Below the pieces are notes generated by a model. It saw nothing but the letters and a program-made list of their open reading frames with translations. It did no database searches and was not told where the DNA came from. Shown here piece by piece: positions 1 to 54,071 of a stretch of 64,000 nt of DNA (positions within the stretch are counted from its first letter, which is position 1; every line of letters begins with the position of its first letter). The position numbers and the translations under genes are program-made. This DNA comes from Escherichia coli (lineage in GTDB: Bacteria > Pseudomonadota > Gammaproteobacteria > Enterobacterales > Enterobacteriaceae). Where the stretch lies: the NCBI RefSeq assembly GCF_044324785.1, contig NZ_CP172127.1; one strand, given 5' to 3'.

Positions 1-2192
1 ATACTGTCGCCACTGTCACACCGGCACAATTGCGCCAATTTTATCAACGCTGGTATCAACCAAATAATATGACCTTTATCGTGGTCGGCGATATTGACAG
101 TAAAGAAGCGCTGGCGCTGATTAAGGATAATTTAAGTAAGCTTCCGGCTAACAAAGCCGCTGAAAATCGCGTCTGGCCGACAAAAGCAGAAAACCACCTG
201 CGCTTTAATATCATTAATGATAAAGAAAACCGGGTGAACGGCATCGCTCTCTATTATCGTCTGCCAATGGTACAAGTGAACGATGAGCAAAGCTTTATCG
301 AACAAGCTGAATGGAGCATGTTGGTTCAGCTGTTCAATCAGCGTCTGCAGGAACGCATACAGTCGGGCGAGTTGAAGACTATTTCTGGCGGCACTGCGCG
401 CAGCGTTAAAATTGCATCCGATTATCAGTCGCTGTTTTTCCGTGTAAATGCACGAGACGATAATATGCAGGATGCTGCGAATGCATTAATGGCAGAGTTG
501 GCAACTATTGATCAGCATGGTTTTTCTGCTGAAGAACTCGATGATGTCAAATCTACCCGCCTCACCTGGCTGAAAAATGCGGTTGATCAGCAAGCTGAAC
601 GTGATTTACGTATGCTGACCAGTCGCCTGGCATCCAGCTCATTAAATAATACGCCGTTCTTGTCGCCGGAAGAGACATATCAACTTTCGAAACGTCTGTG
701 GCAGCAAATTACCGTGCAAAGTCTGGCGGAAAAATGGCAGCAGTTAAGAAAGAACCAGGATGCATTTTGGGAGCAAATGGTAAACAATGAGGTTGCTGCC
801 AAAAAAGCATTGTCTCCTGCGGCTATCCTGGCGCTGGAAAAAGAGTACGCCAACAAAAAGCTGGCGGCTTACATCTTCCCAGGCAGAAATTTATCGTTAA
901 CAGTAGACGCTGACCCACAGGCGGAAATTAGCAGCAAAGAAACGCTGGCTGAGAATCTGACATCATTAACACTTTCCAATGGTGCCAGGGTTATTCTGGC
1001 AAAATCCGCGGGTGAAGAGCAAAAGCTACAAATTACTGCCGTATCTAATAAAGGCGATTTAAGTTTCCCTGCGCAGCAAAAATCACTTATCGCGCTGGCA
1101 AATAAAGCAGTAAGCGGAAGCGGCGTTGGTGAACTCTCCTCTTCCAGCCTGAAACGCTGGAGTGCGGAAAACTCGGTAACCATGAGCAGTAAAGTCAGTG
1201 GCATGAATACATTGCTCTCTGTTAGCGCGCGGACTAATAACCCTGAACCTGGTTTCCAGTTGATTAACCAGCGAATCACTCACAGCACGATTAATGATAA
1301 TATTTGGGCATCGCTACAAAATGCTCAAATTCAGGCGTTGAAAACGCTCGACCAGCGTCCAGCGGAGAAATTCGCCCAGCAGATTTATGAGACGCGCTAT
1401 GCTGATGACCGCACGAAATTACTGCAAGAAAATCAGATTGCACAGTTTACTGCCGCAGATGCGCTGGCTGCCGATCGCCAGTTGTTTTCATCTCCAGCGG
1501 ATATCACGTTTGTCATTGTCGGTGATGTCGCAGAAGACAAACTTCTTCCGTTAATTACGCGTTACTTAGGATCAATCAAACACTCTGATTCGCCATTAGC
1601 CGCAGGTAAACCATTAACTCGCGCGACGGACAATGCATCGGTTACGGTAAAAGAACAAAATGAACCTGTGGCACAGGTTTCACAGTGGAAGCGTTATGAT
1701 TCCCGGACACCTGTAAATCTGGAGACGCGTATGGCGCTCGATGCTTTTAACGTCGCACTGGCAAAAGATCTACGCGTTAATATTCGTGAACAGGCATCTG
1801 GAGCATACAGCGTTTCTTCTCGCCTCTCGGTTGATCCTCAGGCCAAAGATATCAGTCATTTGCTGGCTTTTACTTGTCAACCAGAACGACATGATGAACT
1901 GTTAACGTTAGCGAATGAAGTGATGGTTAAGCGTCTGGCTAAAGGGATCAGTGAGCAAGAACTGAATGAATACCAGCAAAACGTTCAGCGCAGCCTCGAT
2001 ATCCAACAGCGTAGCGTTCAACAATTAGCGAACACCATTGTAAATAGTCTTATTCAATATGACGATCCTGCAGCATGGACTGAGCAGGAGCAATTGTTGA
2101 AACAAATGACGGTAGAGAATGTTAACACTGCCGTTAAACAATATCTTTCTCATCCGGTAAATACTTATACCGGAGTATTATTGCCAAAATAA
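1..2192 (+). CDS. pqqL: M16-family zinc peptidase PqqL, C-terminal ~730 codons; 5' end lies upstream of the window
   Basis: Reading frame is open from base 3; track ORF 30..2192; translation matches the PqqL/insulinase-family C-terminal region; followed by the AT-rich gadB promoter region. Confidence 0.85.
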   Translation, partial: TVATVTPAQLRQFYQRWYQPNNMTFIVVGDIDSKEALALIKDNLSKLPANKAAENRVWPTKAENHLRFNIINDKENRVNGIALYYRLPMVQVNDEQSFIEQAEWSMLVQLFNQRLQERIQSGELKTISGGTARSVKIASDYQSLFFRVNARDDNMQDAANALMAELATIDQHGFSAEELDDVKSTRLTWLKNAVDQQAERDLRMLTSRLASSSLNNTPFLSPEETYQLSKRLWQQITVQSLAEKWQQLRKNQDAFWEQMVNNEVAAKKALSPAAILALEKEYANKKLAAYIFPGRNLSLTVDADPQAEISSKETLAENLTSLTLSNGARVILAKSAGEEQKLQITAVSNKGDLSFPAQQKSLIALANKAVSGSGVGELSSSSLKRWSAENSVTMSSKVSGMNTLLSVSARTNNPEPGFQLINQRITHSTINDNIWASLQNAQIQALKTLDQRPAEKFAQQIYETRYADDRTKLLQENQIAQFTAADALAADRQLFSSPADITFVIVGDVAEDKLLPLITRYLGSIKHSDSPLAAGKPLTRATDNASVTVKEQNEPVAQVSQWKRYDSRTPVNLETRMALDAFNVALAKDLRVNIREQASGAYSVSSRLSVDPQAKDISHLLAFTCQPERHDELLTLANEVMVKRLAKGISEQELNEYQQNVQRSLDIQQRSVQQLANTIVNSLIQYDDPAAWTEQEQLLKQMTVENVNTAVKQYLSHPVNTYTGVLLPK

Positions 2193-2454
2193 TAACAGCC
2201 TCGTCAACACATCGTTGGCGGGGATTTTATCAATATTCGCTATTTTTATGTAATAATTTTATAAATACGTTCAAAATAATAACCAAGTACTAATAGTGAT
2301 ATTTTAAGGTCTGATTTTTACGTGATAATTCAGGAGGCGTAGAAAGTGCATAAAAATAACAACATAAAACACCTTGCCACCACCCAAGAATTCAATAATA
2401 TATTGATTTTCAATGATAAAATATTATTCACATAATATCTCACGATAAATAACA

Positions 2455-2474
2455 TTAGGATTTTGTTATTTAAA
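2455..2474 (+). promoter_or_regulatory. GAD box (20-bp GadE-dependent activation motif) upstream of gadB
   Basis: Sequence TTAGGATTTTGTTATTTAAA lies about 80 bp upstream of the gadB ATG, matching the GAD box described for gadA/gadBC promoters. Confidence 0.6.
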
Positions 2475-2553
2475 CACGAGTCCTTTGCACTTGCTTACTT
2501 TATCGATAAATCCTACTTTTTTAATGCGATCCAATCATTTTAAGGAGTTTAAA

Positions 2554-3954
2554 ATGGATAAGAAGCAAGTAACGGATTTAAGGTCGGAACTACTCGATTC
2601 ACGTTTTGGTGCGAAGTCTATTTCCACTATCGCAGAATCAAAACGTTTTCCGCTGCACGAAATGCGCGATGATGTCGCATTCCAGATTATCAATGACGAA
2701 TTATATCTTGATGGCAACGCTCGTCAGAACCTGGCCACTTTCTGCCAGACCTGGGACGACGAAAATGTCCATAAGTTGATGGATTTATCCATTAACAAAA
2801 ACTGGATCGACAAAGAAGAATATCCGCAATCTGCAGCCATCGACCTGCGTTGCGTAAACATGGTTGCCGATCTGTGGCATGCGCCTGCACCGAAAAATGG
2901 TCAGGCCGTTGGCACCAACACCATTGGTTCTTCCGAGGCCTGTATGCTCGGCGGGATGGCGATGAAATGGCGTTGGCGCAAGCGTATGGAAGCCGCAGGT
3001 AAGCCGACCAACAAACCAAACCTGGTGTGCGGTCCGGTACAAATCTGCTGGCATAAATTCGCCCGCTACTGGGATGTGGAGCTGCGTGAGATCCCTATGC
3101 GCCCCGGTCAGTTGTTTATGGACCCGAAACGCATGATTGAAGCCTGCGACGAAAACACCATCGGCGTGGTGCCGACTTTTGGCGTGACCTACACCGGTAA
3201 CTATGAGTTCCCGCAGCCGCTGCACGATGCGCTGGATAAATTCCAGGCCGACACCGGTATCGACATCGACATGCACATCGACGCCGCCAGCGGTGGCTTC
3301 CTGGCACCGTTCGTCGCCCCGGATATCGTCTGGGACTTCCGCCTGCCGCGTGTGAAATCGATCAGTGCTTCAGGCCATAAATTCGGTCTGGCTCCGCTGG
3401 GCTGCGGCTGGGTTATCTGGCGTGATGAAGAAGCGCTGCCGCAGGAACTGGTGTTCAACGTTGACTATCTCGGTGGTCAGATTGGGACTTTCGCCATCAA
3501 CTTCTCCCGCCCGGCGGGTCAAGTGATTGCACAGTACTATGAATTCCTGCGCCTTGGTCGTGAAGGCTATACCAAAGTACAGAACGCTTCCTACCAGGTC
3601 GCTGCCTATCTGGCGGATGAAATCGCCAAACTGGGGCCGTATGAGTTCATCTGTACTGGTCGCCCGGACGAAGGCATTCCGGCGGTTTGCTTCAAACTGA
3701 AAGAGGGTGAAGATCCGGGATACACCCTCTACGACCTCTCTGAACGTCTGCGTCTGCGCGGCTGGCAGGTTCCGGCCTTCACTCTCGGCGGTGAAGCCAC
3801 CGACATCGTGGTGATGCGCATTATGTGTCGTCGCGGCTTCGAAATGGACTTTGCTGAACTGTTGCTGGAAGACTACAAAGCCTCCCTGAAATATCTCAGC
3901 GATCACCCGAAACTGCAGGGTATTGCCCAGCAGAACAGCTTTAAACATACCTGA
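2554..3954 (+). CDS. gadB: Glutamate decarboxylase beta (PLP-dependent), 466 aa
   Basis: Translation from [21 protein letters not shown]... matches GadB end to end; SD TAAGGAG 7 bp upstream; the track ORF begins at an upstream in-frame ATG (2485) that I regard as non-native. Confidence 0.95.
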
Positions 3955-51997: not shown

Positions 51998-52243
51998 TTG
52001 AGAGTTACCGGTTTTGATATGGGTGTCGAATCCTTATACAAAACACGGGTAACTCTCATGCTTCATACTACCAATCCCGTTATCAAACACAAAGCCAGTT
52101 TGCTCAATCTGGCTGAAGAACTCAGCAACGTATCAAAAGCCTGTAAAATCATGGGCGTTTCGCGTGATACGTTTTATCGTTACCGCGAACTGGCCGATGA
52201 AGGCAGGGAAAGATTACGAAAGCCCGCTCCCTGCAAGGACTGA
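51998..52243 (+). pseudogene. Transposase N-terminal HTH fragment (IS remnant), truncated at the H-repeat element
   Basis: Short ORF with a transposase-like HTH (KACKIMGVSRDTFYRYRELADEG) ending where the H-repeat gene ends; no catalytic domain follows. Confidence 0.4.
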
Positions 52244-53350
52244 CGCCAGGTAGTTTCTGTCCATGGCTGCTTTTCGCATCTTACGTCTTAACCCTGCCTT
52301 GAATACCTTATCATTCGTTAAAATATTAATAGCGATGTGCCGTATCCCTGAAAATAATTCTGCTGCATTTCCTCTTCTTATTTTGCAGTCGTCTTCATTC
52401 ATTACCACGTCCAGACGCCAGTGCAGCTTATTCTCCACGTGCCAGTGATTTCGGATCGCTGTGGCGAACTTCTCAGCGGTTAAATCAGCAGAACTGATGT
52501 AATATCTGACCGTCATTTCTGGCTCTTTCTTTTGTTCTGCTATTATGGACCGAAAGGAGACTGCCACGCATAATTTCTTCAGTCCTTTCCATTCAAACGT
52601 GAAATCAATAAGTTCATCAGGGACATCGCAAACAATATGAAGACGGATTTCTTCTCTGCCTTGACTTTTTTCACTAATTGCGTAACTGTCATGCTCTGGA
52701 TTATTTAATTCTTTCAGTGGGAATTTTTCCTCAAAGGCTTTATTAAGCCGCCCCTGATTTCCTTTTACAGCGAATAAATAATCACCGCCCTGTTTTTGTA
52801 TCTTCTCTGCGATATCTTTCTGGCAACCCATCGCATCAGTTGTGATAATTTTTCCTTTAATATCCAGCATGTTAAGAAGTTCAGGGATAGCTGTGATCTC
52901 ATTGGATTTCTTATCCGTCCTGATCTGTCCGATGACAAGACTGTGCATTGTTGAGAACGCACTAATGACATGAATCGCTCCCCTGCGGCGACTCTTGTCA
53001 TAAGAATGCCGGAGCGTTTTTCCATCAATTGCAATAACGTCTTTATCATCTGAAGAATGGCAGTCACGCATCCCGTTAATAAAGCACTCGTGAAATTTTA
53101 CAGGACTGATACAGGATACAACTCTGGCAATGGTATCGTGAACAGGAATACCATTTTCAAAATCACCATATTGCTTCAAAAAATCGAGATGTGTTTCCCC
53201 AAAATCCTCTATATCTTCCCAGCATTCTGCACCAGAAATAACGGCACAAATAGTCAACAGTAGAATATCCGACAATTTATGTTCCACTTTCTAGGCTTGT
53301 CTGTAATCGGGGATAATAGAAATATGTTCCATCAATTTTTTCAGTTCCAT
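52214..53350 (-). pseudogene. H-repeat-associated (ISAs1-family) transposase gene with an in-frame amber codon at codon 20
   Basis: Track ORF 52214..53287 matches the YhhI/YdcC-type H-rpt protein from [21 protein letters not shown]...; the in-frame sequence upstream reads [29 protein letters not shown] (ATG at 53348..53350, TAG at 53291..53293, where intact homologs have TGG). Confidence 0.75.
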
Positions 53351-53630
53351 TTTGTTCTCCTTAATTATGTAAGGAGTATTTGATCATGTATACGCAATAA
53401 AAAACAGCTTTAGGTAATAAGGAATATCTCAATTTTTAAACATAAAATGCGAATTATTTAGTACAAAAAGTGAACTTCTGATGATCTTTCCCTGCCCATT
53501 GGGTTCATTAAGATCAAGAATAATGGGAATATGCTCAAGAAGACTTTGAATGTTCACCAGACGTCCTTTTCTAATATATTTAATTATTTGGCGATTAAAT
53601 TTTAATCAAATCAACAAGGTAAAACCAAGA

Positions 53631-53660
53631 TTAAAGTTGTGATGATAATCACAACTTTAA
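53631..53660. repeat. Perfect 13-bp-arm inverted repeat (TTAAAGTTGTGAT-GATA-ATCACAACTTTAA)
   Basis: Perfect palindrome in the AT-rich spacer between the H-repeat element and the rhs-associated immunity ORF. Confidence 0.5.
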
Positions 53661-53696
53661 TGATCTTCCCCTGATTCCTCCAGTCCTTTTATTTGG

Positions 53697-54071
53697 TTAC
53701 TCTAATGGTTTTATTAATTGTAAATTTTTAAATGTCATGCTTAATAAGCCATCAGAAAAATAAAGAAAAAATTTATATATCCTTTTGTTTTTTAATTTCT
53801 TTATATACCCATTACTTATATTACCTGACTTGTGATTATCGATTAACTCAGCAGAATCCATAGCGAACACTAAATCATCTACATCAGAAAATTCAACTAT
53901 CATTTTTTCCCTAATGTTCTCATTTTTATAAATGTCAATAAATAACGTCATGTTAAAATGAGATTCTTTGAATGTCGTTTTTACTTCTAACAAAACCCCA
54001 TCATGCCAGTCAATTGAACTCACAATGTCAAAATCGCTCATTATATAATCTCCATTATCCGTTTTAATCAT
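53697..54071 (-). CDS. Candidate immunity protein for the downstream Rhs C-terminal domain, ~124 aa
   Basis: Small low-GC ORF starting at or just after the stop of the rhs C-terminal domain; no signal peptide; alternative start at 54041. Confidence 0.55.

Follow-up and report, generated by a model that had tools for sequence, protein, structure and literature searches.

The described elements closest to the locus reported here are ISEc26, an insertion sequence (IS) of the ISAs1 family that is intact in Escherichia coli O157:H7, and the pseudogene yncI of E. coli K-12, which lies next to ydcD (RhsE). The K-12 element carries a palindrome, atTGTGAtgtaaaTCACGatt, that a 2026 Footprint-seq preprint lists as a previously undescribed CRP site of the gene yncI, centred at 1530492 and with an estimated in vitro dissociation constant (Kd) of 0.6 nM, the second tightest of its Table 1 (PMC12871828). 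CRP is already known to influence the transposase promoters of other ISs: crp mutants express more IS50 transposase (PMC4265352), and the IS5 transposase promoter can be driven by a Crp site in the chromosome upstream of it (PMC11894529). Our literature searches found no relevant report connecting ISAs1, ISEc26 or IS1358 with CRP, nor any IS end described as containing a consensus CRP site. Here we examine a 64,000-nucleotide stretch of E. coli DNA (contig NZ_CP172127.1; the whole stretch is called the window below), in which a long palindrome stands between an H-repeat element, ISEc1, and the presumed immunity gene of an rhs locus. On balance, we read this palindrome as the left-end CRP operator of an ISEc26-like IS, which would couple transposase expression, and possibly the activity of the IS end, to cyclic AMP (cAMP)-CRP, and which is vestigial in this genome.

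The original prediction, made from the sequence alone, described a perfect inverted repeat, TTAAAGTTGTGAT-GATA-ATCACAACTTTAA, at 53631-53660. The repeat is real, and the repeat finder adds one paired base on each side: the full palindrome is ATTAAAGTTGTGAT-GATA-ATCACAACTTTAAT (53630-53661), with fully (100%) complementary arms of 14 bp rather than 13 (53630-53643 and 53648-53661) around a 4-nt spacer. No other perfect inverted repeat in the window is as long, and the palindrome is present there once; among 100 shuffles that kept the local composition, the longest arm was 13 once and otherwise 12 or less, and 14 was never reached (0/100). A dispersed palindromic repeat (REP/BIME/MITE-like) is ruled out by the single copy in the window and by the single site per genome in 379/379 E. 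coli carriers. An Rfam scan of 52900-54300, with E-values up to 10, returned only noise (miRNA and snoRNA models, 12-21 bits). The surroundings are AT-rich, as predicted (GC content 0.25-0.31 across 53300-53900), but what had been taken for an anonymous noncoding spacer of ~300 bp is almost all IS sequence. Positions 53351-53494 are the leader of the H-repeat, and the true intergenic DNA amounts to 23 nt only (53674-53696).

To identify the segment around the palindrome, we compared positions 53290-54110 by BLAST with 5,426 complete E. coli genomes. The first ~205-212 bases of this query are multicopy ISAs1/ISEc1 sequence, and this homology ends at 53494/53501. The adjoining segment, 53495-53673, is found once per genome in 379 E. 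coli genomes and is weakly similar (71%) to a locus annotated as an ISEc26-family transposase. Loci related to it share one layout: the terminal inverted repeat (IR) CAGGGCAAGATCATGAA, the palindrome at once, the blocks CCTGG(Y)TTTA and GATYAAAAYTTAAYC, a Shine-Dalgarno sequence and the transposase start. The window has, in the same order, an IR, the palindrome, the block CTTGGTTTTA, the block GATTAAAATTTAATC, a Shine-Dalgarno sequence (AAGGA, 53568-53564), a start codon and a reading frame of 21 codons. Alignment A2 sets the minus strand of the window against intact elements of Salmonella (L089), of a metagenome (L091) and of O157:H7 strain Gim1-1 (ISEc26 itself, 1,305 bp; L008 2501-3805), together with yncI of K-12 (L007). 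The alignment is colinear from the IR tip at 53673 through the GTG start at 53557 and 20 more codons, and it stops where the ISEc1 terminus begins (53494). The IR, CAGGGGAAGATCATTAA at 53673-53657, conforms to the family terminal repeat CAGGGNAAGATCATGAA, a motif that starts 58 of 79 family leaders, and its innermost 5 nt overlap the outer arm of the palindrome. Of the transposase N-termini compared, the closest is that of the Salmonella transposase P0002 (MNIQSLLDHISIIPDLRQQ / MNIQSLLDHISIIPDL; NIQSLLEHIPII in the relic versus NIQSLLDHISII in P0002). Pfam gives no match for the relic transposase because 21 amino acids are too short.

This transposase is severed at 53494/53495 by the ISEc1 terminus. 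A complete DDE transposase (PF13808 + PF01609) is thus missing, the frame ending after 21 codons, and beyond ISEc1 there is no right end of the same IS but a fragment of an HTH_29 gene instead. A reading frame cut at 21 codons without a right end marks a relic and not an IS; judged by homology, 53495-53673 is what remains of the left end of another ISAs1-family IS, lying directly against the H-repeat. Every copy of the exact palindrome that we found, in E. coli genomes and in 16 metagenome contigs, sits at this one locus and is truncated, with two types of junction, and the copies are ~99% identical. Neither the 5,426 E. coli genomes nor the metagenome scan yielded a full-length copy of the relic's lineage. 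In most genomes that have the palindrome (the majority allele, as in strain 600, L002, 3215-3303), an 89-bp filler replaces codons 11-21 of the relic; the filler holds a plus-strand terminator-like hairpin, TGTCCAT...ATGGACA, followed by TTATTTTTG. Two other explanations of the segment were dropped. A duplicated ISEc1 end or target-site duplication, suggested by the repeated CAGGGRAAGATCA, fails because the segment aligns with ISEc26-type left ends; and a small open reading frame (ORF) from an ATG inside the IR (MKxPY...) is not conserved, its stop codons varying among elements when compared by eye.

The relic resembles ISEc26 and yncI in nearly every respect that its length allows. It has the same IR (15/17), a dyad that starts at IR position 13, the same leader blocks, Shine-Dalgarno sequence and transposase N-terminus, and it too is seated directly behind an rhs immunity gene and cut by ISEc1. 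It differs from ISEc26 in the sequence of its palindrome arm (ATTAAAGTTGTGAT versus ATGAAAATCGTGAT), is closest to the Salmonella and metagenomic elements, and has only 179 bp left. A decayed mobile element is indeed present, but its terminal repeat is the adjacent CAGGGGAAGATCA(TTAA), and the palindrome is subterminal: its first base falls at IR position 13, it pairs with itself, and the right end of intact ISEc26 has no equivalent. The palindrome is not an unconserved singleton: it is kept at the locus in about 360-379 E. coli genomes, and sister palindromes do recur at the equivalent place behind other rhs immunity genes, e.g., ydcD (RhsE) in K-12. They recur there because the IS does, not because they are part of Rhs elements, so the proposed marker of an Rhs-element boundary is not upheld. 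For a recombination site, we found no support.

The dyad is conserved as a structure. ISEc26 of O157:H7 has a perfect palindrome of the same dimensions, ATGAAAATCGTGAT-GTAA-ATCACGATTTTCAT (14+4+14, from IR position 13), and all three of its arm differences from the window dyad are compensated on the other arm (3/3). Over eight distinct variants, 91.8% of the cells of the 14-bp helix are paired, versus 34-52% in slid controls. Pairs changed on both sides occur at arm positions 2, 3, 7 and 9, and the inner five pairs, GTGAT/ATCAC, are invariant, giving a core GTGAT-N4-ATCAC around a spacer that is free to vary (TATC, ATCA, GTAA, GCAT). In the diverged element IS#A, the core alone persists and the outer arms are unpaired. 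Single-mismatch variants are also seen (T.G in K-12, C.A in strain SCU-301); a search for further variants reduced 69 metagenome contigs to 6 distinct sequences, none of them new. The stretch from IR to dyad is without insertions or deletions in all variants, so that the distance from the IS tip to the dyad centre is fixed at 28.5 bp; in the window the centre is at 53645.5, 88.5 bp upstream of the relic transposase start. The right arm also follows base changes of the IR (ATGAA/TTCAT, ATTAA/TTAAT, ACAAA/TTCGT). Several intact elements keep the dyad at the same position though their transposases are only ~80% identical. In intact members of the subgroup the dyad centre likewise stands about 88 bp from the transposase start codon, with the conserved promoter-like blocks directly downstream of the dyad.

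The core is a strong match to CRP. The half-sites TGTGA (53638-53642) and TCACA (53649-53653) form a perfect TGTGA-N6-TCACA at 53638-53653, the sole one in the window, where 0.037 are expected. Measured against the CRP operator consensus AAATGTGATCTAGATCACATTT, both half-sites are perfect, the 6-bp spacing is correct, and T and A flank the spacer. We built a position weight matrix (PWM) from 40 Footprint-seq sites with a Kd of 10 nM or less (PMC12871828, Table 1), whose own leave-one-out scores range from 7.5 to 21.3 bits with a median of 16.0. The window dyad scores 16.1 bits and is the top site of the window; with the yncI site removed from the PWM, it scores 15.9 bits. With the same removal, all dyads of the ISEc26 subgroup score 16-23 bits, and every other ISAs1 leader stays at 7 bits or below. 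Of 60 ISAs1 leaders, nine have a CRP-like site at or above 12 bits; all nine belong to the ISEc26 subgroup, and each has its site centred 28.5 bp from the tip. Intact ISEc26 has exactly one such site, at its left end; there is no comparable dyad at its right end, and the next-best CRP-type score in the element is 4 bits. For the K-12 sister, converting the coordinates of L007 puts the dyad centre at ~1530498, inside the stated positional error of the Footprint-seq site (PMC12871828). The suggestion of an operator for a dimeric regulator therefore gains support, from a perfect-core CRP dyad here and from CRP binding to the sister palindrome in vitro. An FNR site (TTGAT-N4-ATCAA) was dropped because the half-sites, GTGAT, are of the CRP type; the IHF consensus gives only one-mismatch matches, which are not conserved in ISEc26.

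The K-12 sister palindrome also contains the GTG start of a small gene, yncO (BW25113, L007 2350-2535; MG1655 1530319-1530504), which runs outward into the 3' region of ydcD; ydcD-yncO is listed as an overlapping-transcription pair. A yncO-like outward ORF was sought in the window and rejected, the equivalent frame stopping after 11 codons.

The mechanism that we propose builds on parts that are established: what the segment is, that its dyad is conserved and covaries, that the dyad fits the CRP motif, and that CRP binds the K-12 sister site in vitro. From these we infer that CRP binds the window copy and that it affects the transposase, in whichever direction. In this account an ISEc26-like IS entered 23 bp behind the rhs immunity gene, and ISEc1 later truncated it after transposase codon 21. 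A CRP-cAMP dimer bound to the dyad would bend the DNA beside the left IS end and thereby tie transposase transcription, and possibly left-end activity, to the carbon and energy state of the cell. The copy in the window would still bind CRP, and read-through RNA of the rhs-immunity genes would fold into a hairpin there; as its transposase is gone, the element itself is vestigial.

Where a transposase promoter might lie bears directly on this proposal. On the minus strand just downstream of the dyad, there is a -35-like TTGGTT (53628-53623) with a -10-like TAAAAT (53604-53599), the latter inside a second, small conserved palindrome, GATTAAAATTTAATC. By homology with the sequence TTGACC-17-TGaTCTTAT of short-leader ISAs1 elements, this pair is a candidate for the transposase promoter; a consensus promoter scan of the minus strand from the dyad to the start codon called no promoter. 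CRP regulation is expected from positions such as -41.5, -61.5 or -72.5.

Several observations count against a CRP operator. The homology-inferred promoter puts the dyad centre at ~-52.5, outside the classical class I and class II activating positions; with so atypical a position, CRP could repress as easily as activate. The in vitro binding concerns the sister site only, and the K-12 ydcD/yncI interval is an H-NS-bound 'promoter island' (PMC3661553), so that H-NS may mask the CRP site in vivo. What the window holds is a relic without demonstrable selection, its near-identical copies all occupying a single locus. Unlike an ordinary CRP operator, the dyad has a symmetry that reaches 5 bp past the 22-bp CRP site on each side, and the outer positions covary: arm positions 2 and 3, at 13.5-14.5 bp from the centre, are beyond the base-specific CRP contacts. 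Finally, unrelated stem-loops occupy this position in other lineages of the family. Eighty ISAs1 loci sampled from other genera include a large class (Vibrio, Zobellella, Photobacterium, Oceanisphaera) with a stem-loop directly after CAGGGCAAGATCATGAAAA, e.g., GCCTTATGGGACAAGGC, CCCTTATGGAATAAGGG (the Vibrio type) and CTTGCGTGGCAAG, and in the L093 lineage the IR is paired with an inverted copy of itself, followed by CTTTTATTT. Such stem-loops point to a structural requirement rather than to CRP.

The first 50 nt of the Vibrio-class loci (L023-L038, L069, L080) have the consensus CCTTAT-GGR-AYAAGG right after the IR, with some compensatory variants. On the antisense strand TTTTTCATGATC comes after this stem-loop, which makes it resemble an outward-facing terminator more than an inward-facing one. 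A subterminal hairpin common to the whole family was considered and is only partly true: folding z-scores are strong in the ISEc26 subgroup only, moderate in the Vibrio type and absent in ISEc1 and the short-leader elements.

The most serious alternative, which we nevertheless consider unlikely, is that the dyad acts as RNA: transcripts from outside, here from the rhs-immunity genes, would fold into a hairpin that terminates or stalls transcription or marks the 3' end, sparing the transposase from foreign promoters. The immunity-gene stop codon is 23 nt from the relic IS tip, and the hairpin begins 35 nt after it on the same strand, where a scan calls a terminator-like structure of 14 pairs with the tail CTTGGTTTTA. 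The original prediction had noted that no T-run follows the palindrome; this is correct for the plus strand but not for the minus strand, which carries the rhs and immunity ORFs. The predicted fold is stable (-17.8 kcal/mol, z = -5.5), with z = -5 to -7 in all members of the ISEc26 subgroup; of the four compensatory pairs, two are outside the CRP footprint. In the sense RNA the stem can be extended by six pairs between AAGAUC of the IR and a downstream GGUUUU (89.6% paired), including two invariant G.U pairs that are possible in sense RNA only, though this extension helix has no double changes. The stem-loops of other ISAs1 lineages, among them the GC-rich one of L093 with its tail, are also what this explanation predicts, and since the likely IS promoter is downstream of the dyad, the hairpin would form in foreign transcripts only. 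A strong hairpin between the IS tip and the transposase start, found only in transcripts from outside, recalls the fold-back protection of IS10 and IS50. Unlike those structures, the hairpin in the window leaves out the ribosome-binding site, and its score as an intrinsic terminator is poor. A hairpin with a U-rich tail does follow a gene on the same strand, but the stem is AT-rich (GC 0.35), the U-tail is interrupted, and a hairpin-plus-tail discriminant, taken as a rough guide, gives d = -22.5 on the plus strand and -25.3 on the minus strand, when three GC-rich control hairpins of the same window score +18 to +35. The K-12 Term-seq tables consulted have no 3' end at ydcD/yncI, weak evidence given the low expression of the locus. 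ISEc1 and the short-leader ISAs1 elements lack this hairpin and have in its stead one that sequesters the Shine-Dalgarno sequence. That GTGAT/ATCAC does not vary, even in IS#A with its decayed outer arms, would not be expected of a pure structure.

An architectural role at the left end is improbable. Here the dyad would serve transpososome assembly, either through a bend made by a host factor, with CRP in the role of IHF, or as a cruciform or second transposase site. The outside end of IS10/Tn10 has an IHF site, where the host factor bends the DNA ~30-40 bp from the tip, and CRP likewise bends DNA sharply. The likeness lies in a DNA-bending host protein whose binding site stands close to one IS end only, at a fixed distance; here the protein would be CRP, with a conjectural part in transposition. 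The unvarying distance of dyad from tip, the absence of IR-dyad indels, the overlap of the dyad with the inner 5 nt of the IR and the tracking of IR changes by the right arm would all be explained. Subterminal transposase sites, however, are usually found at both ends, and nothing comparable exists at the right end; the closely related ISEc1 is without such a dyad, and a literature search found no transposition data for the ISEc26 subgroup. Neither this role nor an RNA hairpin is exclusive of CRP binding.

We give equally little credence to an inert fossil, in which template-switch mutation ('quasipalindrome correction') would have kept or restored the symmetry and the CRP match would be a by-product. 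Template switching turns imperfect inverted repeats into perfect ones and so mimics compensatory change without selection; moreover, the window copy belongs to a dead IS, all its copies are truncated at one locus, and single-mismatch variants of both kinds exist, in K-12 and SCU-301. Against this stand the intact elements that retain the dyad in place despite diverged transposases, a core that fits the CRP consensus far beyond chance, and the sub-nanomolar binding of the sister site. A CRP core held constant amid a varying loop and outer arms is more than mutation bias alone would produce.

The features of the locus are collected in Table 1.

Table 1. Features of the window around the palindrome, with the basis of each assignment.
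Feature	Position	Strand	Basis
ISEc1 / H-repeat, 1,291 bp	52204..53494	-	IRs CAGGGAAAGAT(C/T)A; multicopy homology; both ends located
Relic left end of an ISEc26-subgroup (ISAs1 family) IS, 179 bp	53495..53673	-	Alignment A2; distant BLAST match
Truncated transposase N-terminus, GTG + 20 codons (VNIQSLLEHIPIILDLNEPNG)	53495..53557	-	ORF 53429..53557; alignment A2
Second, small conserved palindrome GATTAAAATTTAATC	53593..53607	-	Blocks conserved in A2
Perfect 14+4+14 palindrome with CRP-type dyad	53630..53661	none	Repeat finder; PWM; homologues; covariation
Left terminal IR of the relic	53657..53673	-	CAGGGGAAGATCATTAA; tip 53673; 15/17 versus ISEc26 left IR CAGGGCAAGATCATGAA
Presumed immunity gene, 114 aa	53697..54041	-	Hypothetical protein WP_001279013.1 in strain N3; position after toxin domain
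Rhs core protein, C-terminal part (frameshifted)	54068..56089	-	ORF; Tox-WTIP PF15654, E = 3e-13

The neighbouring genes are themselves damaged. The rhs frame is split on the minus strand (54068-56089 and 56150-57973), and in the near-identical strain N3 (NZ_CP031609.1, with this locus near 3396250) it is annotated as an RHS element core protein, frameshifted and with an internal stop. The 114-aa ORF behind it has no Pfam family and is presumed to be the immunity gene by virtue of its position directly after the toxin domain. The ISEc1 copy has its far end at 52204, where CAGGGAAAGATTA mirrors CAGGGAAAGATCA at 53494; its transposase starts with the ATG at 53350 and meets a premature TAG at codon 20 (53291-53293; TGG in other copies), in agreement with strain N3, where the annotation calls this gene an ISAs1 family transposase and notes an internal stop. 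No target-site duplication flanks it (GATGAAGG and CCCATTGG). Given the premature stop and the missing duplication, this ISEc1 is probably immobile and rearranged. Its right IR at 52204 also severs an ORF on the plus strand (51998-52243; HTH_29/HTH_23), the N-terminus of another transposase-like protein.

Two further features of ISEc1 recur in its relatives. Its left terminal IR contains a Dam site, GATC, that its right IR does not (AAGATCATC versus AAGATTACG; 53484-53487 versus 52204-52216), and the same left-only GATC is present in ISEc26 (AAGATCATG versus AAGAGCATG; L008 2501-2517 versus 3781-3797). The arrangement can be likened to the Dam control of IS10, IS50 and IS903. In addition, a leader hairpin of ISEc1, CTCCTTAATTATGTAAGGAG (53357-53376), pairs an anti-Shine-Dalgarno sequence with the transposase Shine-Dalgarno; many short-leader ISAs1 elements (L043-L061) have the same hairpin together with the promoter TTGACC-17-TGaTCTTAT, in which GATC falls in the extended -10. 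By analogy with IS10 and IS50, these hairpins suggest a protection against read-through.

Other strains show related arrangements. In E. coli SCU-301 (L004, 2060-2930, minus strand), the left ends of IS#A, an ISEc26-like element and ISEc1 are stacked in one orientation, each cutting the previous transposase, and the window repeats this pattern with the relic and then ISEc1. Such stacking suggests repeated insertion into resident family members or one-ended deletion from them. In E. coli ATCC 8739 (L001, NZ_CP033020.1, ~1115-3000, minus strand), a strain without the palindrome segment, an ISEc1-like H-repeat adjoins the same immunity gene at the same junction, GGAGGAAT|CAGGGGAAGATCA, and a group II intron encoding an ltrA reverse transcriptase/maturase (WP_001100282.1) sits ~15 nt inside its left IR, at a site equivalent to 53661-53673 of the window. 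A group II intron remnant or target as the origin of the window segment was rejected because that intron, which sits in an ISEc1-like IR variant, is not similar in sequence to the segment.

A false lead is removed: the palindrome is no Rhs-specific signal, recombination site or boundary repeat. The 'novel' yncI CRP site of K-12, for its part, gains a context as the conserved left-end dyad of an IS subgroup that is present in about half of E. coli genomes. A relic IS end with a transcription-factor site is ordinary in kind; what is modestly new is the link between an IS end and CRP that the yncI site provides. For annotation, the finding means that the 'spacer' between an rhs immunity gene and an H-repeat can conceal stacked IS left ends of the same orientation. 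It is tempting to speculate further, though we hold the following to be possible rather than probable. ISs of the ISEc26 subgroup may carry a built-in nanomolar CRP site at a fixed 28.5 bp from the left tip as a host-factor switch, in which CRP-cAMP would bend the left end and gate transposase expression or transpososome assembly, permitting movement only under carbon starvation. The relics would then seed orphan high-affinity CRP sites and hairpins directly behind rhs toxin-immunity modules, and the long covarying dyad would be read twice, by CRP on the DNA and as a fold-back in foreign read-through RNA. If CRP does control these elements, they would be a clear case of an IS hard-wiring its transposition to carbon starvation, and their relics would spread strong CRP sites around rhs loci.

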